Assembly: GCA_018333535.1 (NCBI GenBank)
Contig: JAGXTA010000046.1
Location: 20,551-84,550, forward strand
Direction of reading: 5' to 3'
DNA: 64,000 nt
From: Deltaproteobacteria bacterium
Lineage (GTDB): Bacteria; Desulfobacterota; BSN033; UBA1163
Below, piece after piece: positions 4,022 to 41,797 of this stretch (positions within the stretch are counted from its first letter, which is position 1; the number at the start of each line of letters is the position of its first letter). The position numbers and the translations under genes were made by a program. The notes under the pieces were generated by a model. The model searched no databases and was not told where the DNA came from. It saw nothing but the letters and a program-made list of their open reading frames with translations.

Positions 4022-5029
4022 CTACCAAACGCCGTCAATCTTTGCATGGCAATGCAGGCATTCCCCTCCCACCACCTCATTCCTGACAACCCTGAAACCC
4101 ATCCTTTCGATCACCCTTCGTCCACAATGGGGACATAAGGTATCCTCCCCTTCCTGCCCTGGGATATTACCGCAATAAACATATCGAAGCCCTGCCTTCA
4201 TCCCGATCTCCCTTGCCCGGTGAAGGGTTGCCGCTGGAGTTCTCGGAAGGTTGAGCATCTTATACGTGGGATAGAAGGCGGAGAGATGCCATGGAACCTC
4301 CGCCCCCAACGAGAGGATAAACCGGGCGATCTCTTCAAACTCTCTATCAGAATCGTTGAGGGTCGGAATGACGAGCGTGGTGATCTCCACCCAGATCCCC
4401 AACTCTTTCATCAATTTCAGGCTTTCGAGAACGGGCTTGAGCCTCGCTCCGCACACCTCCTTATAAAACTTCTCCTGAGAGCTCTTCAAATCGACATTCG
4501 CCCCATCGAGATAGGGCTGGATCGTTTTCAGAGCCTCCTCCGTCATATAGCCATTGGTGACAAAGACATTCCTGATCCCTTCCTGACTTGCCAGGACCGC
4601 TGTCTCATACGCATATTCAAAGTAAATGGTGGGTTCGGTATAGGTGTAGGAGATGGAACGGCATCGATTCTCCTTTGCGAGAGAAACGATCTTGGATGGC
4701 GGAACTACGGATCCATCAATTCTTTTTCCGTCGATCGGCATCTGGGAGATCTCATGATTCTGGCACTGGAGACAGTGAAAGTTACATCCCACCGTAGCCA
4801 TGGAGAAGGAGGTCGAACCGGGCAGGAGATGAAAAAGAGGCTTCTTCTCAATGGGGTCGACATTTAGGGAGATGGCCTTTCCGAAAACGAGACTGAAGAG
4901 TAGGCCCTCCCTGTTCTCCCTCACCCCGCAGATTCCACTTTTTGAAGGCGGGATGACACATCGATGACTGCAGAGGTGGCACTTGACCTTTCCCTCTTCC
5001 AAGGGACTATAAAGCATGGCCTCCTTCAT
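4022..5029 (-). CDS. AmmeMemoRadiSam-system radical SAM enzyme (AmrS-like)
   Basis: The N-terminal CHLCSHRC, the GICGVREN motif and the CNFHCLQCQNHEIS radical-SAM cluster motif fit pyruvate-formate-lyase-activase-like AmrS. Confidence 0.75.
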   Translation of the reverse strand: MKEAMLYSPLEEGKVKCHLCSHRCVIPPSKSGICGVRENREGLLFSLVFGKAISLNVDPIEKKPLFHLLPGSTSFSMATVGCNFHCLQCQNHEISQMPIDGKRIDGSVVPPSKIVSLAKENRCRSISYTYTEPTIYFEYAYETAVLASQEGIRNVFVTNGYMTEEALKTIQPYLDGANVDLKSSQEKFYKEVCGARLKPVLESLKLMKELGIWVEITTLVIPTLNDSDREFEEIARFILSLGAEVPWHLSAFYPTYKMLNLPRTPAATLHRAREIGMKAGLRYVYCGNIPGQEGEDTLCPHCGRRVIERMGFRVVRNEVVGGECLHCHAKIDGVW

Positions 5030-5077
5030 ATTCCCTTCCTCTGTGCGTGAGCCGTCCCTGCAGGTGAAGGATAAAAC

Positions 5078-6256
5078 CTAAAGATCGAATTTGGGTAACT
5101 GCTGAAGGACATATTTCCGAATGACCTGAGGAGTGGGCAAGTCCTGAACGACCCTTTTATTCTGAATCAGAGGGAGAAGAAGCTCCTGAAAACGCCCTCC
5201 GCATGAACATCGATTTAACCCCTTGGCGGGGAATCTCCCTCTTGGCCGAAGAGGAACCACCCTGTCCTGAAGACATTTGGAGCATCGGAGGACGCTCTTC
5301 GAACCGGACAGCTTTCCCCTCTTCGCTAATGGCTTTCCTTCGATTTCGACGATGTCCATCGCCAGGTCGACGGACCTCGCGTTGGTAATGGAAGTTCCCA
5401 CTCCATAGGCATCCACCACAGGATTCAGGCTTAAGATACGTTTCTCGTCTAATCCCCCACTGACAAATATCTTCACATGACCAAATCCCCTGAGGTTGAG
5501 CTCCCAGCGGATCTCTTCAATAATCTTCCGGAAGTCTCCCCGCCTTGAACTGGGAGTATCGAGTCTGACGGCATAAAGCTTCTTCCCCAGGGCTTCTGCC
5601 ACACGGATGGCCTCTATCTTTTCATCATTGAAGGTATCGATCAGGGAAACCCGCTTTACCTTGGGATCGATCACCTCGTCAAAGGCTTTGGTCGCTTCCA
5701 CTGTATCGCCGATGAGCAGGACCAGGGCATGGGGCATGGTTCCGGAGGGCTCCTCATGGATCATCTCGGCATCCTTGACAACGGCAACACCGTCACATCC
5801 GCCGATAAAAGCATTCCGTTCCACCATTGGCGCAATCGCCGGATGGATTCGTCTCGCCCCGAAACTGATGACCCTCCGGTCTTCCGCCGCCTTTTTACAG
5901 CGGGCTGCCTTGGTGGCTACGCCGGAAGCCTGGCAGAGGAGACCCAGGATCGATGTCTCGAAGAGACCGAATTCCGTATACATCCCTTCGATCTCCATAA
6001 CCGGCTCGTAGGCCCGAAAGATCGTCCCCTCTTTCATGGCCCTCACTTTGACGGGGAGGTCTTTGAGGAGATAGACCGCCTCTTCAATCCCAGCCAGCAC
6101 GGCCCATCCGTATTCCTCAGGAAACCGTTTGGCGATGAATTCAGCCTTGACCCGTTTGTCAATCTTCTTTGCCTTGAGGATCTCCATCGTCCTCGTAAAA
6201 TAGACATCCGTATACTTGCCGGCCTTGATATCCTTTGGATCAGCGATATGAAACAT
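5078..6256 (-). CDS. Nicotinate phosphoribosyltransferase with a C-terminal zinc-ribbon extension
   Basis: The N-terminal MFHIADPKDIKAGKYTDVYFTRT...LKDLPVKVRAMKEGT matches the NAPRTase family. The C-terminal CSKC...CSCG ribbon is an extension. Confidence 0.8.
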   Translation of the reverse strand: MFHIADPKDIKAGKYTDVYFTRTMEILKAKKIDKRVKAEFIAKRFPEEYGWAVLAGIEEAVYLLKDLPVKVRAMKEGTIFRAYEPVMEIEGMYTEFGLFETSILGLLCQASGVATKAARCKKAAEDRRVISFGARRIHPAIAPMVERNAFIGGCDGVAVVKDAEMIHEEPSGTMPHALVLLIGDTVEATKAFDEVIDPKVKRVSLIDTFNDEKIEAIRVAEALGKKLYAVRLDTPSSRRGDFRKIIEEIRWELNLRGFGHVKIFVSGGLDEKRILSLNPVVDAYGVGTSITNARSVDLAMDIVEIEGKPLAKRGKLSGSKSVLRCSKCLQDRVVPLRPRGRFPAKGLNRCSCGGRFQELLLPLIQNKRVVQDLPTPQVIRKYVLQQLPKFDL

Positions 6257-6404
6257 CGTTAATTCTCTATTAATGGAATTAGAATTCCAATCTATATAAC
6301 AGAAATTTCTCGCCCCTGTCTATAAAAATATTCGGCTCCCCTTTTACAATCCCTCCGTCATAGGGATCATTTCATTTCATTGATAGGTGAAGTCGATAGG
6401 CGGG

Positions 6405-17479: not shown

Positions 17480-17704
17480 CTGAAAACTGGAAAGTATAAA
17501 ATAGAGCTTCTGTTAACCCCGTTTGAAGGCCCCAGCATTCCTGCCTGTCGGCAGACAGGTATGCTTGAGGATGGTAGAAATAGAAAGCATCCCTGCCTGT
17601 CGGCAGACAGGAGCTCCTCATTTAGTGTGGGGTTAAACCCCTGCCTCTTCTAACGGGGTTTACTCGCCCTCCATCTGAATCTCAATCTTTTTGGGTTTCT
17701 CGCA
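17480..17704. repeat. Direct repeat DR1 (about 225 bp). It contains two CCTGCCTGTCGGCAGACAGG palindromes and a copy of the last 15 codons of mobB.
   Basis: Near-identical to 18428-18650. The end of the repeat encodes ...CEKPKKIEIQMEGE*, compared with ...IEIQIEGE* for authentic mobB. Confidence 0.75.
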
Positions 17705-18427: not shown

Positions 18428-18650
18428 CTGAAAACTGGAAAGCATAAAATAGATATCATGTTTACCCCGTTAGAAAGCCTCAGCATTCCTGCCTGTCGGC
18501 AGACAGGTATGCTGAGGATGGTAGAAATAGAAAGCATCCCTGCCTGCGGCAGGCAGGAGCTCCTTATTTAGGGCGAGGTCAAACCCCTGCCCTTTCTGAC
18601 GGGGTTTACTCGCCCTCAATCTGAATCTCAATCTTTTTGGGTTTCTCGCA
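18428..18650. repeat. Direct repeat DR2 (about 223 bp) overlapping the authentic 3' end of mobB
   Basis: See DR1. Together the repeats bracket the hicAB cassette. Confidence 0.75.
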
Positions 18651-22353: not shown

Positions 22354-23691
22354 GTGAAAGGGAAAGAGCCGGATAAATTTTTTAATGTCATTCTCAATAG
22401 CATTGCCGATGGGGTGTTCACCACCGACAATGATGGCAAAATCACCTTTATGAATAAAGCTGCTGAGGAGATTACGGGATTTTCGAATAAGGAGGCTATC
22501 GGCCGTTACTGCTTTGACATCTTTCGGGCAGATATCTGTCAGACCAGATGTGCGTTGAAAGAAACCCTCCAGACAAAAAAAGAGATCATCAATCTCAATG
22601 CTACCATTTTGAAGAAGGGAGGCCAAAAAGTCCCCATCAGTATTAGCACTGCTGTATTGAAGAATGAGCGAGGACAAATCATAGGAGGAGTTGAAACCTT
22701 TCGGGATCTCTCTGTCATTGAAGAACTTAAGAAAGAACTCGCCGAAAAATATTCGATTGGCGATATCATAAGTAAAAATCACCTGATTTATGACATCTTC
22801 AACATTCTTCCCGATGTCGCAGAGAGCGATAGCACGGTTCTGATTCAAGGGGCCAGCGGCACGGGAAAAGAGCTTTTTGCAAAGGGCATTCACCATTTGA
22901 GCCGGAGAAAAGAAAAACCTTTCATCAAGGTAAATTGTGGCGCCCTTCCGGATACTCTCCTTGAGTCGGAACTCTTCGGGTACGTCAAGGGAGCCTTTAC
23001 GGATGCGAAAAAAGACAAACCGGGAAGGTTTGCCCTGGCCAACGGGGGAACCTTATTTCTCGATGAGGTAGGGGATATGTCCCCTTCCCTTCAGGTGAAG
23101 TTGCTTCGTGTTCTCCAAGAAAAAGAGTTCGAACCCCTGGGTTCGACGAGTCCCAGAACAACCGATGTCCGAATCATTGCGGCCACCAACAAAGACCTTT
23201 TAAAACTGATGGAAATAGGAAAATTCAGGGACGACCTCTTTTACCGGATCAATGTGGTGAAAATCGAGCTTCCTCTCCTTTCACAGAGAAAGGAGGACCT
23301 CCCCCTGCTCATTGATAGCTTTATTAGGAAATTCAACGCAAAGATGGGAAAACGCATCACCAGGGTATCCGATCAGGCCTTAAGGGTTCTTTTGCGATAT
23401 GATTATCCCGGGAATGTGAGAGAACTTGAAAATATCCTGGAGCATGCCTTTGTTCTCTGTAGGGGAAATCTGATCGATCTTGATTGTCTTCCAAAAGAAA
23501 TGACAGGTGACCAAACGGAAATCGCCTCCTCTTTGCTAACCGATGAGAAGAACCCTCTCGATCAAGCCGAGGCAGAAACCATCCGGCAGGTGTTGAAGAA
23601 ATATGGAGGAGACCGAACCAAAGCAGCCAACGAATTGAGTGTCGGCCGCACAACCCTCTGGAGGAAAATGAAAAAGTATCGGCTTGCCTGA
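22354..23691 (+). CDS. Sigma-54-dependent transcriptional activator with an N-terminal PAS domain and a C-terminal Fis-type HTH
   Basis: PAS region (FNVILNSIADGVFTTDNDGKITFMN), AAA+ sigma-54 interaction domain (GASGTGKELFA...GAFTDA...ESELFG) and C-terminal HTH (RTKAANELSVGRTTLWRKM). Confidence 0.85.
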   Translation: MKGKEPDKFFNVILNSIADGVFTTDNDGKITFMNKAAEEITGFSNKEAIGRYCFDIFRADICQTRCALKETLQTKKEIINLNATILKKGGQKVPISISTAVLKNERGQIIGGVETFRDLSVIEELKKELAEKYSIGDIISKNHLIYDIFNILPDVAESDSTVLIQGASGTGKELFAKGIHHLSRRKEKPFIKVNCGALPDTLLESELFGYVKGAFTDAKKDKPGRFALANGGTLFLDEVGDMSPSLQVKLLRVLQEKEFEPLGSTSPRTTDVRIIAATNKDLLKLMEIGKFRDDLFYRINVVKIELPLLSQRKEDLPLLIDSFIRKFNAKMGKRITRVSDQALRVLLRYDYPGNVRELENILEHAFVLCRGNLIDLDCLPKEMTGDQTEIASSLLTDEKNPLDQAEAETIRQVLKKYGGDRTKAANELSVGRTTLWRKMKKYRLA

Positions 23692-26889: not shown

Positions 26890-27047
26890 TGGCAATTTGT
26901 AGTGATTGCATGGGGGCCATCGATGGAACCCAACCCCCTAACCCCTTTAGGGGAGAAGGGAGACCTGCCTACCGGCAGGCATGGGGAGTATTTCTTGCGC
27001 TATACTCTGTGCGCTATGCGGTTTTGTAGGTATAGGAGGTGATAAAA

Positions 27048-32407: not shown

Positions 32408-32641
32408 ATGCCGATTTATGAGTACCGTTGTGAGAGGTGTGGTCAAGAGAATGAATTTCTAATTATAGGAAGGAAGGAGAAACTCCGATGCAAACAATGC
32501 GGGAGCGAGGATTTGACGAAGCTGCTGTCTGCCCATAATACATCCAACAGCTCTTCGCGAAGATCTTCTGAACCCGGTCCCGGAGGCTGTTGCGGGGCGC
32601 CTAATTCCTGCGGAACACCGGGGAGTTGTTGTTCTGGGTAG
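32408..32641 (+). CDS. FmdB-family zinc-ribbon protein with a Cys/Gly/Ser-rich tail
   Basis: MPIYEYRCERCG...CKQCGS hallmark. RBS GGAAGGAGG. Confidence 0.7.
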   Translation: MPIYEYRCERCGQENEFLIIGRKEKLRCKQCGSEDLTKLLSAHNTSNSSSRRSSEPGPGGCCGAPNSCGTPGSCCSG

Positions 32642-32998: not shown

Positions 32999-33131
32999 GA
33001 ATGGTAGGACGTTTCTAAGGATGTTGTCGCCGAGGATATTCATTGTCATATTGAAGATATTGTTTCAAATTCCAAATTGGATTCTAAAAGTGATAAAATG
33101 AGACTAGAACGAAGACCAAAGGAGGTGTCTT

Positions 33132-33839
33132 ATGGCCGAAGCAATAGATGGATGCGTGAAACCGGCAAAAGGGCCAATTATGGCTGGAGAATCGAAAGCC
33201 TCTCAACTGTCACCAATTCAAAAGGAGGAAATCAAAATGATCGCTCGAGTTGGCAAACCGGCGCCCGATTTTGAGGCAAGCGCCTATGTGGATGGGGGAT
33301 TCAAGAACATTAAGCTTTCAAATTATAAAGGAAAGTGGGTCGTCCTTTGCTTTTACCCTGGAGATTTTACCTTTGTCTGACCTACTGAATTGTCGGCAGT
33401 TGCCGCCAAATATCAAGAATTCAAGTCCCTTGGCGTAGAATTTTTATCATTCAGCACAGACAGTCGTTTTACCCACAAGATCTGGCAGGAGGAGGAGCTC
33501 TCAAAAATGGTTCCAGGTGGAGTGCCATTTCCAATGCTGTCAGATGCAGGTGGTCGTATTGGTAGTGTCTATGGAGTCTACGATGAAGATGCAGGGGTGG
33601 ACATTCGGGGTCGTTTTTTAATCGATCCGGATGGAGTCATTCAAGCCATGGAGACGGTCACGCCACCGGTGGGCCGGAACGTTTCTGAACTGATCCGACA
33701 GGTCAAGGCTTTTCAGCATACACGCGTTACAGGTGAGGTGATGCCTTCCGGATGGCAGCCTGGAAAACCGACCTTAAAGCCCGGTCCTGATTTGGTGGGA
33801 AAAGTTTGGAAGGTCTGGAAACCGGAAATGGCCTATTAA
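33132..33839 (+). CDS. Peroxiredoxin (AhpC/Tsa family) with in-frame UGA (selenocysteine predicted) at the peroxidatic-Cys position. Copy 1.
   Basis: ...FYPGDFTFV[TGA 33378-33380]PTEL... where the family has FVCPTE. The ORF track shows two same-frame ORFs split only by this TGA. The N-terminal 35-aa extension is conserved by synonymous changes in copy 2. Confidence 0.8.
33392..33407 (+). promoter_or_regulatory. Candidate bacterial SECIS hairpin 11 nt downstream of UGA in copy 1
   Basis: GTCGGCAGTTGCCGCC, a small stem-loop with GUU in the loop. Conserved in copy 2 at 38734-38749. Confidence 0.4.
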
Positions 33840-33878
33840 ATTTTTTCTGGATATGTCCCAGGGAGGCGGTCACGATCA

Positions 33879-34853
33879 ATGAACGATATCATTCAAGTGA
33901 GAGATCTAACGAAGTTCTATGGGAACACCCCTGCTATTGACCATATCTCCTTTGAAGTCAAAAAAGGGGAGGTCTTTGGTTTCCTTGGACCAAATGGAGC
34001 AGGGAAAACGACCACCATTCGGATGATGGTAGGCCTGACCCAACCCAGTTCCGGCACCGCATTGGTCGATGGCCACGATATTTTGAAGGAACCCGTGGAG
34101 GTCAAAAAGACAATTGGCCTTGTACCTGAAACCTCAAACCTCTATGGGGAGCTTACCGCACTTGAAAACCTTATCTATCAGGCAGAGATCTATGGAGTTC
34201 CAAGAAAAGAGCGCCGAATTAAAGCGATCCAGCTTCTTGAGGAATTCGGTTTGAAGGAACATCAAGACAAATCTTTTCAGAAATTATCGAGAGGATTAAA
34301 GCGAAGGCTAACGATTGCCGCTGCATTGATCCACCATCCCAAAATCCTCTTCCTTGATGAACCCACTACAGGTCTGGATGTGATGAGTGCAAGGGGGCTG
34401 AGGAAACTTATCCTTGATTCAAAAAAGAAAGGATTAACCATCTTTCTCACCACTCATTATATCCCTGAAGCAGAAAGCCTTTGTGATCGTATTGCTATTA
34501 TTGTTCAAGGGAAAATACGGGTCGTGGATACCCCCGAAAATATAAGAGACCAGATGAAGGAGGCCGAAGTCCTTGAGATCGGACTGGATCGCACTCCAGA
34601 GGATTTAAAGAGTAAGCTCCCTTCCGTGGATGGGATCGACAAGATTGTGATAGACGAAAACCGTATCCGTTTTCATACCAGGAGACTCGATCAGGTTGCA
34701 TCTCCTGTTATGAGATTCCTTGAAGGACACGGGGCCAAAATTAAATCGATTAATACGTTGAGTCCAAGCCTTGAAGATGCTTTTGTGAAAATAACCGGTC
34801 TCGATTCAGAGTTGATGAAGATCGATAAGCCAATGAAAGCAGGTCCGGAATAA
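33879..34853 (+). CDS. ABC transporter ATP-binding protein (ABC-2 type exporter)
   Basis: Walker A GPNGAGKTT, signature LSRGLKRRLTIA and Walker B LFLDEP. Confidence 0.9.
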   Translation: MNDIIQVRDLTKFYGNTPAIDHISFEVKKGEVFGFLGPNGAGKTTTIRMMVGLTQPSSGTALVDGHDILKEPVEVKKTIGLVPETSNLYGELTALENLIYQAEIYGVPRKERRIKAIQLLEEFGLKEHQDKSFQKLSRGLKRRLTIAAALIHHPKILFLDEPTTGLDVMSARGLRKLILDSKKKGLTIFLTTHYIPEAESLCDRIAIIVQGKIRVVDTPENIRDQMKEAEVLEIGLDRTPEDLKSKLPSVDGIDKIVIDENRIRFHTRRLDQVASPVMRFLEGHGAKIKSINTLSPSLEDAFVKITGLDSELMKIDKPMKAGPE

Positions 34854-34920
34854 TTTCCTCTCTCTCCCCCATGCGCCTGCCTGCCGGTAGGCAGGGGAGA
34901 GGGCGAGGGTGAGGGGGAAT

Positions 34921-35658
34921 ATGGAAGAACTCAAAAAAGTCTATTTCATAGCTAAAAAAGATATGGGGGCCTACTACCTCAAGCCTCCCTTAATCAGTTG
35001 GGGATTGATGCTTCCCATCGTCTTTGTATTAGCTTTCTATTTCAGAAATCCGGCGGGAATCAAAGAGGTCGTCCCAGGATTGATTGGTTTGACCCTTCTC
35101 TTCTCATGCACGTCCATGGCAGCCATCGTGATTACCTTTGAGAAAAGAATAGGTGCTCTGGAGCGGCTCCTCCTGGCACCATTGGAGATCAGAACGATCC
35201 TCTTCGGCAAGACCCTTGGAAGTTCTGTATTCGGGTTGGTTATCACCATCGTCATCACAATATTTCTCATTCCAATTATAGGCCTTTCTATTAATTATCC
35301 CTTTTCTTTTTCTCTCATTATCATCCTTTCTGGTATCGCCTTCTCACTCCTTGGAATCCTTATTTCTGTAGGAGTAAAGGAAGTCTTCGAAGCCATGACC
35401 ATGTCCAATTTCTTTCGATTCCCAATGATATTTTTATGCGGGGTCTTCTTTCCTGTGCCTTCCATGCCCTTCCCTCTTCCTATCCTCTCTTATCTCCTAC
35501 CATTGACCTATACGGTTGATGGTTTGAAACATTGCCTGTTGGAAGATAAAGGAATGATCCCTTTTTATCTGGATTTATTAATTTTATTAGGATTCGTTTT
35601 TTTACTCTTTAGTCTCTCGTTATTCATTTTTAAGAAAAGAATTCGCCAAGAATTCTGA
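34921..35658 (+). CDS. ABC-2 family transporter permease
   Basis: Six TM segments with an ABC-2-like topology. The ORF track begins at 34909 inside a REP element. Confidence 0.8.
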   Translation: MEELKKVYFIAKKDMGAYYLKPPLISWGLMLPIVFVLAFYFRNPAGIKEVVPGLIGLTLLFSCTSMAAIVITFEKRIGALERLLLAPLEIRTILFGKTLGSSVFGLVITIVITIFLIPIIGLSINYPFSFSLIIILSGIAFSLLGILISVGVKEVFEAMTMSNFFRFPMIFLCGVFFPVPSMPFPLPILSYLLPLTYTVDGLKHCLLEDKGMIPFYLDLLILLGFVFLLFSLSLFIFKKRIRQEF

Positions 35659-35673
35659 AAGGAGGTGAAAACC

Positions 35674-35814
35674 ATGTGCCAAAGTAAATCTGGTTGCACC
35701 CAACCCGAAAATCTGAAGGGAACCCCAAAGGATTGCTCGGCCGAGCAGATCAACGTCTGTCATCCTGGAGAGAAGGGGCATCCCTGTGAGGCTGAGGAAA
35801 CGGAAAGAAAATAG
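35674..35814 (+). CDS. Small Cys-rich protein (46 aa, 5 Cys)
   Basis: Strong RBS AAGGAGGTG, then a 7-nt gap, then ATG. MCQSKSGCTQPENLKGTPKDCSAEQINVCHPGEKGHPCEAEETERK. Below the 60-aa ORF-track cutoff. Confidence 0.4.
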   Translation: MCQSKSGCTQPENLKGTPKDCSAEQINVCHPGEKGHPCEAEETERK

Positions 35815-36093
35815 ATGATGTTTTATAAAAAAGAATGTATCATCAGTTCCGTTGAGACTCAGATTATCTTCACTTAAAAATCCCTCCGAACTTCCCTTTA
35901 GAGAGATGGTGGGATTTGATTTGCAGGGCGAGGCTTTAGCTTTGCATCAAGCAACCCTAAAGAGCTGCCCTACAAATAATTGGAGAAGGGGGTGTATTTG
36001 TTATTTGATCATATGGAAAGGAGGTGATGGACTGAAGATTAAATTCGGTTGGGTGGGGATGAATCTATAAAAATTAAAAGGGAGGTGGAAGTC

Positions 36094-37155
36094 ATGTTAA
36101 AGGAGATGAATCGAAGGGACTTTTTAAAGACAACAGCAGCGACAGGTGCGGTATTGATGGCAGGAGATGTTTTGAAAGGAGGTGCTACAATGGCATATGG
36201 TTCTGTAAAAATCCCAGAGGTTGAAAAATTGGTTATTACCGTCATAACGGACAATTACTATGATTGCCTGAGGCCAAATTACAAGGTGGCTAAGAGATAT
36301 TTCATCATTCCTGGTACATCTATCCATTCAGAGCATGGCTTGGCTTATTACATCGAGACGGCCATCAATGGCAAGCCCAATACCTTTATGTTTGATTATG
36401 GATTGGATTTCCAGGGGGTCGGTAAAAACATGGAGCTTCTCGACATCGACGTGAAGAGAGTAGAGGCACTAGGGATAAGCCATGGCCATTTTGACCATTG
36501 GGGAAATCTTATTGCCATTCTCAAATATAATAGAACGAAAATCAGGAAGGGGATCCCCTTGTATGTAGGTGAGGAAACCTTTTCTCACAGGTTTGCCAAA
36601 CTGCCACCCGGACCTTTCGAAGTAAGTGGTCTCATTGATCTGGAGCAGTTGAGAAGGGATGAGATCGAAAGCCTCGGCACGGTTAAGATTGTAGAGGTAA
36701 AAGATCCGACTCTTATTGTTCCTGGAGCATATCTGACTGGAAATATTGAAAGAGTTACCGAATATGAGAAAGGGTCGCCGATTTTATTAATCAAAAGAGG
36801 AGATAAAATGGATCTCGATCTCTTCATGGGAGAGCAGGCACTGGTATTTAATGTAAAGGGAAAGGGTTTGGTAGTTGTCTCATCCTGTGCCCATGCCGGG
36901 ATTGTCAACACAGTAAAACACGCCCAGAAAATGACTGGAATAGATAAAGTCCATGCCATCATCGGAGGATTTCATTTGAGCGGTGCCAAACCTGAGGTAA
37001 TCCAGAGGACGATTGCCGACATCAAGGCTGTTACTCCAGAATACATCGTTCCCATGCACTGTACTGGATTTGAGGCCGTCACAGCATTCGCCAGAGAAAT
37101 GCCAGGGCAATTTATCATTAACACTGCCGGAACCAGATACATCTTTACAGCTTAG
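36094..37155 (+). CDS. MBL-fold metallo-hydrolase with a twin-arginine (Tat) signal
   Basis: MLKEMNRRDFLKTTAATGAVLMA Tat motif. HGHFDHWG metallo-beta-lactamase motif. RBS GGGAGGTGG. Confidence 0.8.
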   Translation: MLKEMNRRDFLKTTAATGAVLMAGDVLKGGATMAYGSVKIPEVEKLVITVITDNYYDCLRPNYKVAKRYFIIPGTSIHSEHGLAYYIETAINGKPNTFMFDYGLDFQGVGKNMELLDIDVKRVEALGISHGHFDHWGNLIAILKYNRTKIRKGIPLYVGEETFSHRFAKLPPGPFEVSGLIDLEQLRRDEIESLGTVKIVEVKDPTLIVPGAYLTGNIERVTEYEKGSPILLIKRGDKMDLDLFMGEQALVFNVKGKGLVVVSSCAHAGIVNTVKHAQKMTGIDKVHAIIGGFHLSGAKPEVIQRTIADIKAVTPEYIVPMHCTGFEAVTAFAREMPGQFIINTAGTRYIFTA

Positions 37156-37163
37156 ATTGACCC

Positions 37164-37203
37164 GGGGCGTTGAGGTTTCATTCACCTCAACGCCCCCTTT
37201 TTT
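37164..37203 (+). terminator. Rho-independent terminator
   Basis: The stem GGGGCGTTGAGG-tttcatt-CCTCAACGCCCC is followed by CTTTTTTT. Confidence 0.8.
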
Positions 37204-37307
37204 ACAGGGCTTTTTGAGATTGAGATTCAAGTTCTGCTGAATATTTTTGGAGCGAAAAGGTGAGATCCTTTTATCTAAATCAGAAGAGGTGAGGAGGGGG
37301 ATTTTAT

Positions 37308-38459
37308 ATGAGATCTTTTCTTAATCAATATGTTAAATTACCCATCGTTTTATTTGCCTTAATTCTTCCCTTATTTTTTACTATATCAATCTCTCTCGCT
37401 TTAGACTTCGCTCCCATTCGAACCCCGTCCACCGGCTATCAACCTCAATTTCAAGTCTCAGGGAACAAAATCTACTATGTCTGGCATGAGTACGATGGTC
37501 CCTATCGGCAGATTTTCACTGCGGAAATGAACACTGATGGGACAGGATGGAGGTCAGAAAAAAGAACTTCTGGCCAATTTGATAAAGTCTTTCCTCAACT
37601 TCAGGTTGCGAATGACAAGATCTATTATGTTCGTCAGCAACCTGATCTAACAATAAATCGCCAGATCTGGACGATGGAGATGAGCATTGACGGAACAGGA
37701 TGGAAAGAGGTTCAGAGGACGAATACCCCCTTTGATAAGCAGTTTCCCCAGCTACAGGTGGTTGGCAATAAAATTTATTATACCTGGAATGAATCAGATG
37801 GAAAACACCGCCAGGTATGGACAGCAGAGATGAATTTAGATGGGTTGGGCTGGGAGGCAGTGAAAAGGACCTCAACACCTTATGACAAATTTGAGCCTCA
37901 GCTTCAGGTCGTGGGTGAAAAAATCTATTTCGTTTGGAGGGAGTTTGACGGAAGACATTTTCAGATCTGGACGGCTGTCATGGATATTGATGGGAAAGGG
38001 TGGCAAGAAGTGAAGCGGACAAATACCCTGTTCGACAAACATAACCCGCAACTCCAGGTGGATGAAGGAAGAATCTACTATACCTGGCATGAAGCAGATG
38101 GCCCGGATTGGCAAAAAGCAAGATATCAGATATGGACAGCTCAGATGAACATCAATGGAACAGGATGGCTGGCGAATCAAAGAACCTTTGTAGGCTTTGA
38201 TAAGTATACCCCCCAATTACAAGTTCAACGAGGAAGAATTTATTATATCTGGGAGGAATCTGATGGGAAATATCGTCAGATTTGGACGGCTGTGACGAGT
38301 AAGGATGGAACGGGATGGATATCTGAAAAGAGGACGACATCTCCTTATGGAAAATACGACCCCCAATTTCAGATTGTTGGGAATAGAGTTTATTATGTGT
38401 GGCACGAAGACCACGGACCTACTGAACCCATCTGGGTGGCTATAGAGACACTAAAATAG
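37308..38459 (+). CDS. Secreted repeat protein with about 6.5 tandem copies of a roughly 46-aa unit (beta-propeller-like)
   Basis: Signal peptide. Repeats of [48 protein letters not shown]. Confidence 0.7.
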
Positions 38460-38473
38460 AAAGGAGGTTAAAT

Positions 38474-39181
38474 ATGGCTGAAGCAAAAGATGGATGTGTG
38501 AAGCCGGCAAAGGGGCCCATCGGTTTGGCGGAAACCAAAACCTCTCAAACCGCACAAATCCAAAAGGAGGAATTGAAGATGATGGCTCAAGTTGGAAAAC
38601 CAGCACTGGATTTTGAAGCGAGTGCCTATATCGACGGGGGTTTTAAAAATATCAAATTATCTGATTATAAAGGCAAATGGGTAGTCCTCTGTTTTTATCC
38701 CGGTGATTTCACGTTCGTTTGACCTACCGAGTTGTCGGCAGTTGCCGTCAAATACGATGAGTTCAAATCGCTCGGAGTTGAGGTTTTGTCATGCAGTACA
38801 GATAGCCGCTTCATCCACAAGATCTGGCAGGAAGAAGAACTCTCGAAGATGGTGAAAGGTGGGGTTCCCTTTCCGATGCTGTCGGATGCAGGAGGCCGCA
38901 TCGGGAGTGCCTACGGCGTCTACGATGAAGAAGCAGGAGTCAATATTCGGGGTCGTTTTTTGATCGATCCGGATGGGGTCATCCAGGCAATGGAGACTGT
39001 TGCTCCACCGGTCGGCAGGAACGTTCCCGAACTGATCCGGCAGGTCAAGGCCTTTCAGCATGTGCGTGCAACGGGTGAGGTCATGCCTTCCGGATGGCAA
39101 CCTGGGAAACCGACCCTAAAACCCGGACTGGATTTGGTTGGCAAAGTATGGAAAGTCTGGAAACCCGAGATGGCTTTTTAA
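38474..39181 (+). CDS. Peroxiredoxin (AhpC/Tsa family) with in-frame UGA (selenocysteine predicted) at the peroxidatic-Cys position. Copy 2.
   Basis: ...FYPGDFTFV[TGA 38720-38722]PTEL.... About 75-80% nt identity to copy 1 across the whole gene, including the N-terminal extension. Confidence 0.8.
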
Positions 39182-39272
39182 CACTATTCCCTGACCCCCT
39201 GCCTACCGCGAGGCAGGCATCCCTCTCCCCCTGCCTACCGGCAGGCAGGCGCTGGGGAGAGGGAGAGGTAAA

Positions 39273-39734
39273 ATGTACAGATGTATGATGGATAAGGAAG
39301 CTCATCAACTTAAAGATTTTTTAGAATTGGGTGGACTAAAAAGTACCAAAGAAAGAGAAACGATTCTCAAAGAACTTGAAGTTCTGGAGGAACATTTCAA
39401 CGCTGAAAAACTATATTCAATTCTCAGCAGAAAGGGAACGAAGGTCTCACGACCTACTATTTATCGAACGCTAAAGCTTCTTGAACGATTCCATCTCATT
39501 GAAAGGCTCGATGTTAAAAAGAACTGTTTCTATTACGAGCCTATGTCTCATAAAAAGGACCATGGCCATCTGGTTTGCGAGCATTGTGGGAGGATTATTG
39601 ATTTTGCAAGTGAGAGTATTCAAGATTTGAAATCGGAGGTATTCGAGGGGAAGAACTTCAAACTGGACAATATTTCCATTCAGATATTCGGCATATGCGA
39701 GACATGTCAGAAAACATCTAAAATTAAAAGCTAA
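39273..39734 (+). CDS. Fur-family transcriptional regulator (PerR-like by context)
   Basis: HGHLVCEHCG...CETCQ metal sites and the Fur fold. It lies between the Sec-peroxiredoxin and the Sec-NADH-oxidase-like gene. Confidence 0.8.
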   Translation: MYRCMMDKEAHQLKDFLELGGLKSTKERETILKELEVLEEHFNAEKLYSILSRKGTKVSRPTIYRTLKLLERFHLIERLDVKKNCFYYEPMSHKKDHGHLVCEHCGRIIDFASESIQDLKSEVFEGKNFKLDNISIQIFGICETCQKTSKIKS

Positions 39735-39750
39735 ATATGAGGAGAGGAAG

Positions 39751-41118
39751 ATGTTAAAGAAAGAGAAACTTGTCATCATTGGCGGATCGGCCGCTGGCCC
39801 CAGTGCAGCAGCCAGGGCAAAGCGAGTTAATCCTGATCTTGAAGTGACTATGTTCGAACAGGGTCGATTCGTATCCTATGGCTCCTGAGAAACTCCTTAT
39901 TACATCGGTGATGTAGTAAAAGATCAGAGCAAATTGATAGTCCGGACACCCCAACAGTTTAAAGAAATGCAAGATATTGATGTGAAGACCGAGCATCGCG
40001 TCACTAAAATTGATTCCAAAGAGAAAAGGATTGAAGTTGTGAATTTATCAAAATCCGAAACTCAATGGTTTTCTTACGACAAACTTATCGTTGCTACAGG
40101 TGCCCGATCCAGACGTCTCAATATTCCCGGAAGCAATGCCAAGAACATATTCACCCTGAAAGATCTTGATGACGGCATCCGTATTAAGAATTATATCGAT
40201 GAAAAAAGGCCGAAAAGGGTTGCTATCCTCGGTGGTGGCTTTATTGCATTGGAGATGTGCGAGGCTTTTCGGTTAAGAAATTGTGAGACCTTTCTATTCT
40301 GCCGCAGAGATTTACCCGCGGGTAATCTCGAAAGGGAAATCTCTGAAAAAATATTGAAGGAGTTAGAAGAGAATGGCATTCATTTCCTCGCCCATCATGA
40401 ACCCGCAGCATTTAAGATGAATAGTAATGGAGAAGCCATCTCCTTCGAAACCAATAAAGCCGAATATCCTGTGGATATGGTCTTGATGGCCATTGGAGTC
40501 ATTCCGAATGTGGAAATAGCTAAAGAGGCAGGTATTGAGCTTGGAAAGACCGGAGCGATTCGAACAGACACGGCTCAAAGGACTAATCTTACAGACATTT
40601 ATTCGGCAGGAGACTGCTCAGAAGTTTTTAATCTCGTGAGTCAGGATTGGGTTCATACACCCCTTGGAGATATTGCGAACAAACAGGGCCGGGTGGCAGG
40701 TGAGAACGCTGCCGGTGGAAAGGCCACTTTTTCCGGTGCAGTGGGGTCAGCTGCTTTTAAGGTTTTTGAATTGGAGGTGGCCTTCACAGGTTTAGGAACA
40801 CAGACTGCCCGAGGATATGGTTTTGATGTGGATTCACAGATCATTGAGGCTGAATCGAAGGTAGGATATATGCCGGGATCAAAATGGATGCTCATTAAGT
40901 TGATTTTTGATAGAAGGAGTGGAAGGCTTTTGGGTGCTCAGATGGTCGGGAAGGAAGGAGTGGCTCGGAGGATCAACGCCCTTGCGGTCGCGGTTCATCA
41001 GAAGATGAGCGTGGACGAAATTGCACGGCTCGATTTTGCTTATGCGCCTCCTTTCTCCGCTCCCTTGGATCCGATTTTAATAGCTGCCGAGCAGGCAGCG
41101 AAGAAAATCGTTAGGTAG
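39751..41118 (+). CDS. NADH oxidase/CoA-disulfide reductase-family FAD-dependent oxidoreductase with in-frame UGA (selenocysteine predicted) at the redox-active Cys position
   Basis: RBS GAGGAGAGG. N-terminal FAD motif LVIIGGSAAGPSAAARAKR. FVSYGS[TGA 39886-39888]ETPYYIGDVV compares with the family motif ISFANCGLPYYIGG. The frame is continuous with ORF 39934-41118. Confidence 0.75.
39896..39919 (+). promoter_or_regulatory. Candidate bacterial SECIS hairpin beginning about 10 nt after UGA
   Basis: Stem TTATTACATC/GATGTAGTAA with one mismatch. Apical loop GGU. Confidence 0.45.
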
Positions 41119-41164
41119 AAAATACAGGATTCTGAATTTAATAAAAATCCAAAAGGAGGAGAAC

Positions 41165-41341
41165 ATGGCAGTCATTATTGATCTGGAAAAATGCACAGGA
41201 TGCGGTACTTGTGAAGAGGGTTGTCCGGTAGAGGCCATTAAGATTGAGAATGAGAAGGCTGTAGTCGATGCAGAGACCTGCGTTGATTGTGGCACCTGTA
41301 TCGATGAATGTGCTGAAAAAGCCATCAGCGAAGGAACATAA
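41165..41341 (+). CDS. 2x[4Fe-4S] ferredoxin (58 aa)
   Basis: CTGCGTCEEGCP and CVDCGTCIDEC motifs. RBS AAAGGAGG. Below the ORF-track size cutoff. Confidence 0.8.
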   Translation: MAVIIDLEKCTGCGTCEEGCPVEAIKIENEKAVVDAETCVDCGTCIDECAEKAISEGT

Positions 41342-41347
41342 GGAGCA

Positions 41348-41797
41348 ATGAAAAAGTCTGGAAAAGTTGTCGGTGTGTGTACGAGTCAAAGGAGGGCTGA
41401 TCCAAAGATAAATGTTGGTAGGGGTCTCCTCAAAATGGGTCATGGGCTAGTAGGCGATTCTCATGCCGGGACTGAGAAAGAGGTTAGCCTTTTGGCGATG
41501 GAGAGTATCCAAAAACTTTGCCAGGAGACGGGGCTCTCGGCTGGGCCTGGATCCTTTGCTGAAAATATCACCACGGAAGGGATTGATTTGACCTCTCTCC
41601 CCGCAGGTACCCAATTACAGATCGGACAAACAAAACTCAAGGTTATTCAAATTGGAAAAGATCCATCTCAAGCTCACACTTACAACTATCAGGGATTTTC
41701 CATTTTACCGAAGGAAGGCGTGTTTTGTAAGGTCATTGAAGGTGGGGAGATAAAAGTAGGAGATTCTATAAAGATACTCAAAAACCAAGAGGTTTAG
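41348..41797 (+). CDS. MOSC domain protein
   Basis: 149 aa, YiiM/MOSC-like, with GDSHAG and VIEGGEIKVGD. Confidence 0.65.
   Translation: MKKSGKVVGVCTSQRRADPKINVGRGLLKMGHGLVGDSHAGTEKEVSLLAMESIQKLCQETGLSAGPGSFAENITTEGIDLTSLPAGTQLQIGQTKLKVIQIGKDPSQAHTYNYQGFSILPKEGVFCKVIEGGEIKVGDSIKILKNQEV

Follow-up and report, generated by a model that had tools for sequence, protein, structure and literature searches.

A putative PerR-like, autoregulated selenoprotein operon for peroxide and oxygen defence beside a separate exporter unit in an uncultured Syntrophaceae-like anaerobe

The PerR regulons of delta-proteobacteria have been described as local and autoregulated, with operators that are lineage-specific or variable (Rodionov et al., 2004, PMC545781), and the selenocysteine (Sec)-containing peroxiredoxins and the Sec-containing NADH oxidase are known selenoprotein families (Zhang et al., 2006, PMC1794560). 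PerR proteins carry Asp at the position of Asp104 in Bacillus subtilis PerR (BsPerR), where Fur proteins carry Glu, and H2O2 still oxidises a PerR-like protein of B. licheniformis that carries Glu at the Asp85 position (PMC4866751). Here we describe a locus at positions 33132-41341 of a 64-kb stretch of DNA (the window) from an uncultured Syntrophaceae-like anaerobe, in which the gene for a Fur-family regulator lies among those for two Sec peroxiredoxins, PrxU1 and PrxU2, and a Sec flavoprotein of the Nox/Npx/CoADR type (Nox). We consider it reasonably probable that the locus holds two adjacent, separately transcribed systems, namely a PerR-like, autoregulated peroxide/oxygen defence operon (unit B) and a separate exporter (unit A). 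Taken as a whole it would plausibly serve the selenium-dependent peroxide/oxygen defence of an anaerobe, with only unit B under the PerR-like regulator.

Unit A consists of PrxU1, an ABC-2 exporter, a small Cys/His-rich protein (CysPep) and a Tat-signal MBL-fold protein (Tat-MBL), while unit B starts with a propeller protein (Rep7) and continues through PrxU2, the Fur-family regulator and Nox to a ferredoxin and onward. An initial annotation of this DNA had treated all of these genes as one module under one regulator. Its placing of unit B under a PerR-like regulator remains plausible, but the module itself is split by an intrinsic terminator (-26.1 kcal/mol, z = -8.55), which the annotation had correctly recognized behind the MBL gene and which is retained there in relatives. 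Spacing is tight among the genes 5' of this terminator, and likewise among those 3' of it. The sole conserved operator-like site heads unit B; unit A is without one, and its ABC-2/CysPep pair is elsewhere linked to ArsR-type regulators.

The candidate operator was found by inspection of intergenic DNA, followed by a 17-mer search allowing at most 3 mismatches and then by a scan with a position weight matrix (PWM), on which the scores below are based. Its consensus is (T)ATTGA(A/G)ATTGAGATTCAAA(T/C)TCT, with unconserved flanks. The element is present in a single copy in 14/14 related loci, scoring 34-40 bits in each, and always stands 5' of the first gene of the regulator's operon, whether this runs Fur, PrxU-Fur, Rep7-PrxU-Fur or YedE…PrxU-Fur. 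Scanning the 64-kb window returned one site (37210-37236, 33 bits) with a runner-up at 17 bits, and 1.3 Mb of unrelated loci, used as a control, contained only 12 matches of at least 12 bits. The scan found no credible second operator in the window: the 17-bit match, at 22375, falls within a gene for a sigma-54 activator. The element overlaps a promoter-like sequence composed of a -35 box TTGAGA (37220), a 16-nucleotide (nt) spacer and a -10 box TATTTT (37242-37247). As a PerR operator it is a conserved, single-copy candidate at the right place that differs from the canonical Per box. It contains TTGAR-N7-TTCAA and repeats with a period of 6 bp (ATT-GAR-ATT-GAG-ATT-CAA-ATT-C), reminiscent of Fur boxes when these are read as hexamers.

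Three further observations concern operator-like sequences and the genes behind them. A marginal 16-bit match at 6274-6300 (- strand), possibly due to chance, lies immediately 5' of a gene for a 392-amino acid (aa) protein (5078-6256, - strand). The palindrome TCCAA-A-TTGGA at ~33080, proposed in the initial annotation as an operator, is not supported, as it lies inside the relic of a DUF89/ARMT1 gene, is unlike the conserved operator and is common only to L092 (related loci are referred to by L numbers), which has the same relic; nor did a comparison of the DNA 5' of PrxU1-type genes (the window against L100, L107, L093 and L103) yield any shared motif beyond the Shine-Dalgarno sequence. In L004 (6146-6670) and L003 (1225-1700) the first gene after the operator encodes a membrane protein of the YedE/YeeE type (Sulf_transp). 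An in-frame TGA falls at its conserved G-C-x-SG motif, here ADG-U-PSGHG, and from its sequence this protein is a probable selenoprotein transporter in the PrxU-Fur-Nox operon.

Analysis of the regulator indicated a metal site of the PerR type, in keeping with the PerR-like character ascribed to it in the initial annotation. H37, E85, H93, H95 and D106 show no variation among 22 orthologues and align with H37, D85, H91, H93 and D104 of BsPerR (2fe3 as reference sequence), and a Cys4 zinc site (C98, C101, C138 and C141, aligning with BsPerR C96, C99, C136 and C139) is invariant as well. The pattern is hence that of PerR: three His are combined with two acidic residues (Asp/Glu), and the one aligned with BsPerR Asp104 is an Asp. 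The Glu that marks an iron-sensing Fur at this position (BsFur Glu108) was not found, the Asp being invariant.

Several observations weigh against a PerR protein acting at this operator. No curated PerR model was passed, the best being NF052545 (Clostridium PerR) with 82.6 bits against a cut-off of 180, Fur models from NCBIfam score nearly as high as PerR models, and a profile search of the PDB ranks Campylobacter jejuni Fur first, with 97.6 bits, and BsPerR at 73.8 bits. The element itself is no clean 7-1-7 palindrome but a 6-bp-periodic array of ATT. In L009, L010, L012, L013 and L014 the PWM window ends 4-6 nt before the inferred start codon of Fur, without a Shine-Dalgarno sequence; a leaderless promoter was considered for relatives in which the element abuts the Fur start and was rejected, as sigma-70 spacing did not fit. 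Finally, the regulator gene is missing or a remnant in L090, L091 and L101, where PrxU and Nox are kept, and it is dispensable there. Because the ligand pattern favours PerR while the curated scores and the PDB ranking do not, we conclude with moderate confidence that the regulator is PerR-like in mechanism, judged by its sequence, without filing it as a curated PerR.

The enzymes that would be controlled are selenoproteins. Protein identities were taken from Pfam and NCBIfam searches, with U written as C for the PrxU profile. The three selenoprotein readings of the initial annotation are borne out: each TGA falls at a catalytic Cys position, is kept in every orthologue examined (9/9 for PrxU and 14/14 for Nox) and is followed by a hairpin, and we take the three in-frame TGA to be real Sec codons on these sequence grounds. 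PrxU1 matches NF040737 (PrxU) with 400.2 bits at a cut-off of 270, residues 6-233 covering profile positions 2-233, and in both copies UGA occupies the peroxidatic Cys position (FTFV-U-PTE). The hairpin GUCGGC-AGUU-GCCG begins 15 nt after this UGA and is invariant in 9 orthologues in which neighbouring wobble positions vary; covariation is impossible here, because the stem never varies. In Nox (Pyr_redox_2, 3.6e-59; Pyr_redox_dim, 3.6e-16), VSYGS-U-ETPY aligns with VSYGA-C-GLPY of its best solved relative, NADH oxidase 6ruz, which puts U at the active Cys. Its SECIS-like (selenocysteine insertion sequence) hairpin starts 11 nt after UGA and has a 9-10-bp stem and a GGU loop, and here covariation was found: relative to the stem UACUACAUC/GAUGUAGUA, L004 has UAUUACAUC/GAUGUAAUA with a compensatory change from C-G to U-A, and the window has the U·G intermediate. 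Against the CoA-disulfide reductase equivalogs Nox scored 426.9 at a cut-off of 578.8 (TIGR03385) and 422.3 at a cut-off of 458 (NF007123). As Nox stays below the NCBIfam cut-offs for both the CoADR and the Nox equivalogs, its substrate may be O2, H2O2 or CoA disulfide.

Both PrxU proteins have a 35-aa N-terminal extension (33132-33236 and 38474-38578) with an invariant DGCVKPAKG motif; its first 16 residues are invariant in 6 orthologues, and dN/dS is 0.03. Since the canonical C-terminal resolving Cys is absent, Cys8 of the extension could be the resolving residue. Two PrxU isoforms are possible, because a second strong Shine-Dalgarno sequence and an ATG occur in frame where the Prx core starts (33237 / 38579). 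A low PrxU identity in L003 (42-45%) was traced to frameshifts in this long-read contig and discarded.

From these features we propose a model in which unit B, reaching from 37212 to at least 41797, would be a locally autoregulated operon made up of the operator/promoter and the genes for the propeller, PrxU2, the repressor, Nox, the ferredoxin and a MOSC-domain protein. Metal-loaded repressor would bind the 24-nt element that overlaps the -35 box. H2O2 would lead to metal-catalysed oxidation of His and thereby to release of the repressor, the Asp position being that of PerR sensitivity to H2O2, and expression of the enzymes would rise. PrxU2 would then reduce peroxides at its selenolate, and Nox would reduce O2 or H2O2 (or a disulfide) at its own with NAD(P)H. 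Unit A, which has no such operator, carries in this lineage a second PrxU as its first gene, apparently picked up by the exporter system.

The features of the locus are listed in the following table. All genes of the initial annotation were recovered in their order and at their coordinates on the + strand by open reading frame (ORF) listing and through-stop translation, including the 46-aa Cys-rich peptide with its strong ribosome binding site, and the anaerobe context holds.

Features of the locus and its immediate surroundings, in window coordinates
Feature	Coordinates	Strand	Details
FmdB-type zinc-ribbon gene	32408-32641		Cys-rich C-terminal tail …GGCCGAPNSCGTPGSCCSG
EncFtn-like ferritin-like protein, 97 aa	32705-32998	+	NCBIfam EncB_fam, 68.9 bits; Pfam EncFtn-like
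3'-end relic of DUF89/ARMT1-like gene	33020-33100	+	frame DVVAEDIHCHIEDIVSNSKLDSK
PrxU1, Sec peroxiredoxin, 235 aa	33132-33842	+	UGA 33378-33380; NF040737
ABC ATPase, DrrA type	33879-34853	+	TIGR01188 drrA, 318.9 against cut-off 312; Pfam ABC_tran, DrrA1-3_C
REP-like nested palindrome between ATPase and permease	34854-34917	+	fold -38 kcal/mol
ABC-2 type permease, 245 aa	34921-35658	+	Pfam ABC2_membrane, 2.4e-29
CysPep, 46-aa cytoplasmic Cys/His-rich protein	35674-35814	+	ORF behind AAAGGAGGTG
Tat-signal MBL-fold protein, 353 aa	36094-37155	+	Pfam TAT_signal, 29.6 bits, and Lactamase_B; HGHFDH motif
Intrinsic terminator	37164-37200	+	13-bp stem, then T run
Candidate operator of Fur-family regulator, 24 nt	37212-37236	+	ATTGARATTGAGATTCAAAYTCT / TTTTGAGATTGAGATTCAAGTTCTG
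Rep7, seven-bladed beta-propeller, 383 aa, exported or membrane-anchored	37308-38459	+	seven ~50-aa repeats
PrxU2, Sec peroxiredoxin	38474-39184	+	UGA 38720-38722
Two REP-like palindromes between PrxU2 and regulator gene	39188-39271	+	folding
Fur-family regulator, PerR-type metal site	39285-39734	+	Pfam FUR (PF01475), 5e-31
Sec Nox/Npx/CoADR-type flavoprotein, 455 aa	39751-41121	+	UGA 39886-39888; Pfam Pyr_redox_2, Pyr_redox_dim
2x[4Fe-4S] ferredoxin, 58 aa	41165-41341	+	Pfam Fer4; kept 3' of Nox in relatives
MOSC-domain gene, same gene string after ferredoxin	41348-41797	+	Pfam MOSC

Conservation of gene order was followed in 14 loci anchored on the Fur-family regulator and 80 loci anchored on PrxU; the nearest genomes are metagenome-assembled genomes of uncultured Syntrophaceae and Deltaproteobacteria. 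The linkage assumed in the initial annotation holds in these relatives, where the genes were not found to be unlinked. Two independent metagenome contigs have the identical gene order, and variants of it occur in ~35 related loci. Fur and Nox are adjacent in 13/14 regulator-anchored relatives, with PrxU directly 5' of Fur in 7, and the pair is usually followed by a ferredoxin, a MOSC protein, a cytoplasmic MBL or HAD protein, LplA and a methyltransferase. What precedes Fur varies: Rep7-PrxU in L003, L005-L007, L087 and L096, PrxU alone in L004, L008 and L011, and ABC permease-CysPep-TatMBL directly in L009, L010, L012 and L014. In L100 and L107 the ABC ATPase gene is immediately preceded by a PrxU closest to PrxU1 (~92%), and PrxU genes of less than ~82% identity, from other lineages, have none of these neighbours. 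Given this modular synteny and the contexts of the low-identity PrxU genes, the neighbourhood is real and has been repeatedly reshuffled yet kept together, but it is clade-specific. In L005 the propeller gene is separated from the MBL terminator/operator by a DDE transposase gene (4500-5804), and most rearrangements of the cluster are located at this junction. A 468-aa di-CxxCH protein encoded in L003 matched no Pfam family.

Could the regulator instead be a metal sensor, such as Fur or Mur, by which Prx and Nox expression would follow iron or manganese status? Its closest solved relatives are Fur proteins, it has Glu at the BsPerR Asp85 position and it does not reach the PerR equivalog threshold, but its scores against the Fur equivalogs are likewise far under the cut-offs, and the invariant Asp occupies the Asp104 position where Fur proteins have Glu (PMC4866751). 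Moreover, iron-uptake genes are linked in none of the ~35 loci, the linked genes being those of peroxide/oxygen enzymes, and we therefore regard a metal sensor as unlikely. Fur homologues from Poribacteria are uninformative in this respect, since none of 70 loci (~39% identity) has Prx or Nox neighbours. We give even less credence to the view that a narrow clade has merely inherited this gene order and that the modules of the cluster are coupled neither in function nor in regulation. It would agree with the confinement of the cluster to the closest relatives, roughly the 25 nearest PrxU loci, and with the terminator between units A and B; against it, the modules are found together in different combinations (PrxU-ABC in L100 and L107, ABC-CysPep-MBL-Fur-Nox in L009, L010, L012 and L014 and, in L090 and L101, PrxU-Nox lacking Fur), and the operator stays with the leading gene of the Fur operon in every case.

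The two Prx copies had also suggested, in the initial annotation, that the duplication framed an acquisition or rearrangement. In its strongest form, the whole 8-kb region would be a horizontally acquired island bounded by the two genes, and the two direct copies 5.3 kb apart, a tRNA-Lys gene 1.1 kb upstream and the gene relic adjoining PrxU1 would fit such an origin. This explanation is already contradicted and seems to us extremely improbable. PrxU1 and PrxU2 are 86.8% identical as proteins, with 79% identity at the DNA level, dS of ~1.8 and dN/dS of 0.04, and their DNA homology is confined to the gene, beginning at the Shine-Dalgarno sequence and ending at the stop codon. Each is nearer to PrxU of other genomes than to its neighbour: PrxU2 is 93.7% identical to the protein of L007 and 90.7% to that of L005, and is the orthologue of the PrxU adjoining the regulator in relatives, and PrxU1 is ~92% identical to that of L107. 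By these sequence comparisons the two are old paralogues and not recombination-competent repeats. Base composition is that of the flanks (GC 0.43-0.46 inside against 0.44-0.48 outside), no integrase or transposase was found at 31-44 kb, and in relatives with one Prx only, synteny extends over the intervening genes and the housekeeping genes downstream. A rearrangement did occur at PrxU1, although the region is not framed by the two copies. The relic, ~25 codons within 130 nt 5' of PrxU1 (DVVAEDIHCHIEDIVSNSKLDSK), matches the C-termini (…VIAEDIHCDIGDIVLK…) encoded by an intact gene located 5' of the ABC ATPase in L004, L007 and L014, which points to a deletion of MBL-def-DUF89 and the placing of PrxU1 before the ATPase.

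Within unit A, CysPep has the motif C-x5-C…PENLKG-P-DCS-EQI-CH-G…HPC, with C2, C8, C21, C29 and H30 invariant and H36 and C38 nearly so, and matched no Pfam family. A profile search gathered 145 clusters at 50% identity, mostly of 40-110 aa and some in tandem; a few members are fused to ArsR HTH domains and one to a CMD/AhpD-like domain. An ArsR-family HTH is fused to or directly adjacent to five distant members (in loci including L167, L168, L169 and L171), and homologues of the window's ABC ATPase (44-50%) and permease (41%) come next in 3/3 distant contexts with enough downstream DNA. Because CysPep and the exporter thus form a conserved pair with its own usual type of regulator, we place unit A outside the PerR-like regulon, and it is probably a separate export system responding to thiol-reactive ligands. 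The structures closest to Tat-MBL, 2p4z and 3h3e, are both uncharacterised MBL hydrolases. One may speculate further, though we think it doubtful, that CysPep is the first example of a ligand-sensing domain not described so far, which acts together with DrrAB-type exporters and has here been joined to selenoprotein peroxide defence. If so, the domain would elsewhere be the C-terminal sensor of ArsR-type repressors or an AhpD-like partner, the system would handle thiol- or selenol-reactive species, e.g. a selenium, arsenic or reactive sulfur compound, and metalloid or selenium homeostasis would be linked to peroxide defence at this locus.

Around unit A, a pair of FmdB and EncFtn-like genes stands directly 5' of PrxU1 and the same pair is found 5' of the ABC module in L004 and L090; the EncFtn-like gene, just outside the locus, is possibly co-transcribed with PrxU1. 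The spacer between the CysPep and MBL genes (35815-36093) measures 279 nt here against ~55 nt in L012. It contains a promoter-like match (35852-35881) and a long imperfect hairpin (35919-35977, -23.8 kcal/mol, z = -0.59) that is no better than shuffled sequence, and it may be an inserted element that supplies MBL with its own promoter.

The secreted seven-repeat protein of the initial annotation is indeed present, as Rep7, and its gene stops 14 nt before that of PrxU2. AlphaFold models it (pLDDT 90.3, pTM 0.85) as an exported or membrane-anchored protein with an N-terminal hydrophobic helix and a seven-bladed propeller of 28 strands. There are more than 230 homologues, and among the best 120 listed, which are at least 70% identical, none has an informative name. 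No function was drawn from the fold, since a search of the PDB gave only generic propellers (lyases, sialidases and Kelch proteins) at 9-15% identity.

REP-like palindromes without T tracts lie inside both units, the pair at 39188-39271 folding with -46.8 kcal/mol (z = -3.7). They belong to a family of G+C-rich nested palindromes in intergenic spacers, with the core CCTGCCTRCCGGYAGGCAGG and flanks CCCTCTCCCC/GGGGAGAGGG, for which 7 sites were counted in the window against 0.01 expected (17540-17611, 18488-18507, 26964-26983, 34854-34917 and 39188-39271); two operons contain some of them. Rfam searches at gathering and E-value thresholds returned only tRNA-Lys and spurious miRNA matches on the palindromes.

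The enzyme families of this locus and its regulatory logic are all already known, and nothing in it overturns current knowledge. Novelty lies in the operator sequence and in three conserved, uncharacterised parts: the Cys-containing N-terminal extension of PrxU, the exported propeller that is always paired with PrxU and the Cys/His domain tied to ABC-2/ArsR. The model that we propose for the control of selenium-dependent peroxide/oxygen defence in a syntrophic-type anaerobe is testable, as it names the operator, the repressor ligands and the targets, and in it the apparent targets of a PerR-type regulator are selenoproteins.

Compared with the local PerR regulons predicted in delta-proteobacteria (perR-rbr-rdl in Desulfovibrio and perR-rbr-roo in Geobacter; PMC545781), unit B shares the Fur-family gene inside a peroxide-defence operon and the single 5' operator, here a candidate, and the TTG-N11-CAA spacing of the predicted Geobacter PerR box AatTGnnATnnnATnnCAatt equals that of our element. 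With PerR of B. subtilis (2fe3) and PerR3 of B. licheniformis (PMC4866751) the regulator shares the site of three His and two carboxylates with the PerR-type Asp. It departs from the known PerR systems in its apparent targets (PrxU and Sec-Nox in place of rubrerythrin or AhpC), in the new sequence of the candidate operator, which is not the Per box TTATAATNATTATAA, in having Glu at the Asp85 position and in falling below every curated PerR cut-off.

The PrxU proteins agree with their family (NF040737; Sec-Prx, PMC1794560), which occurs in Syntrophus-type anaerobes, in the full-length match, in Sec at the peroxidatic position and in having no C-terminal resolving Cys (VMPSGW), but here two paralogues share one locus, one of them heads an ABC-2 exporter operon, and both have the conserved 35-aa extension with its invariant Cys. 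Likewise, Nox has the domain set of the Sec-NADH oxidase of Geobacter metallireducens (PMC1794560) and of Nox/Npx/CoADR proteins (6ruz, 1joa and 1yqz), with Sec in place of the single redox-active Cys and a SECIS-like hairpin, and differs in that its gene is co-operonic with a Fur-family gene. The exporter, finally, resembles DrrAB-type ABC-2 exporters under ArsR/SmtB: its ATPase passes the drrA subfamily cut-off, and distantly related ATPase/permease pairs (44% and 41% identity) are preceded by an ArsR gene, whereas here an ArsR gene is absent and the Cys/His domain forms a 46-aa protein of its own, encoded 3' of the permease gene.

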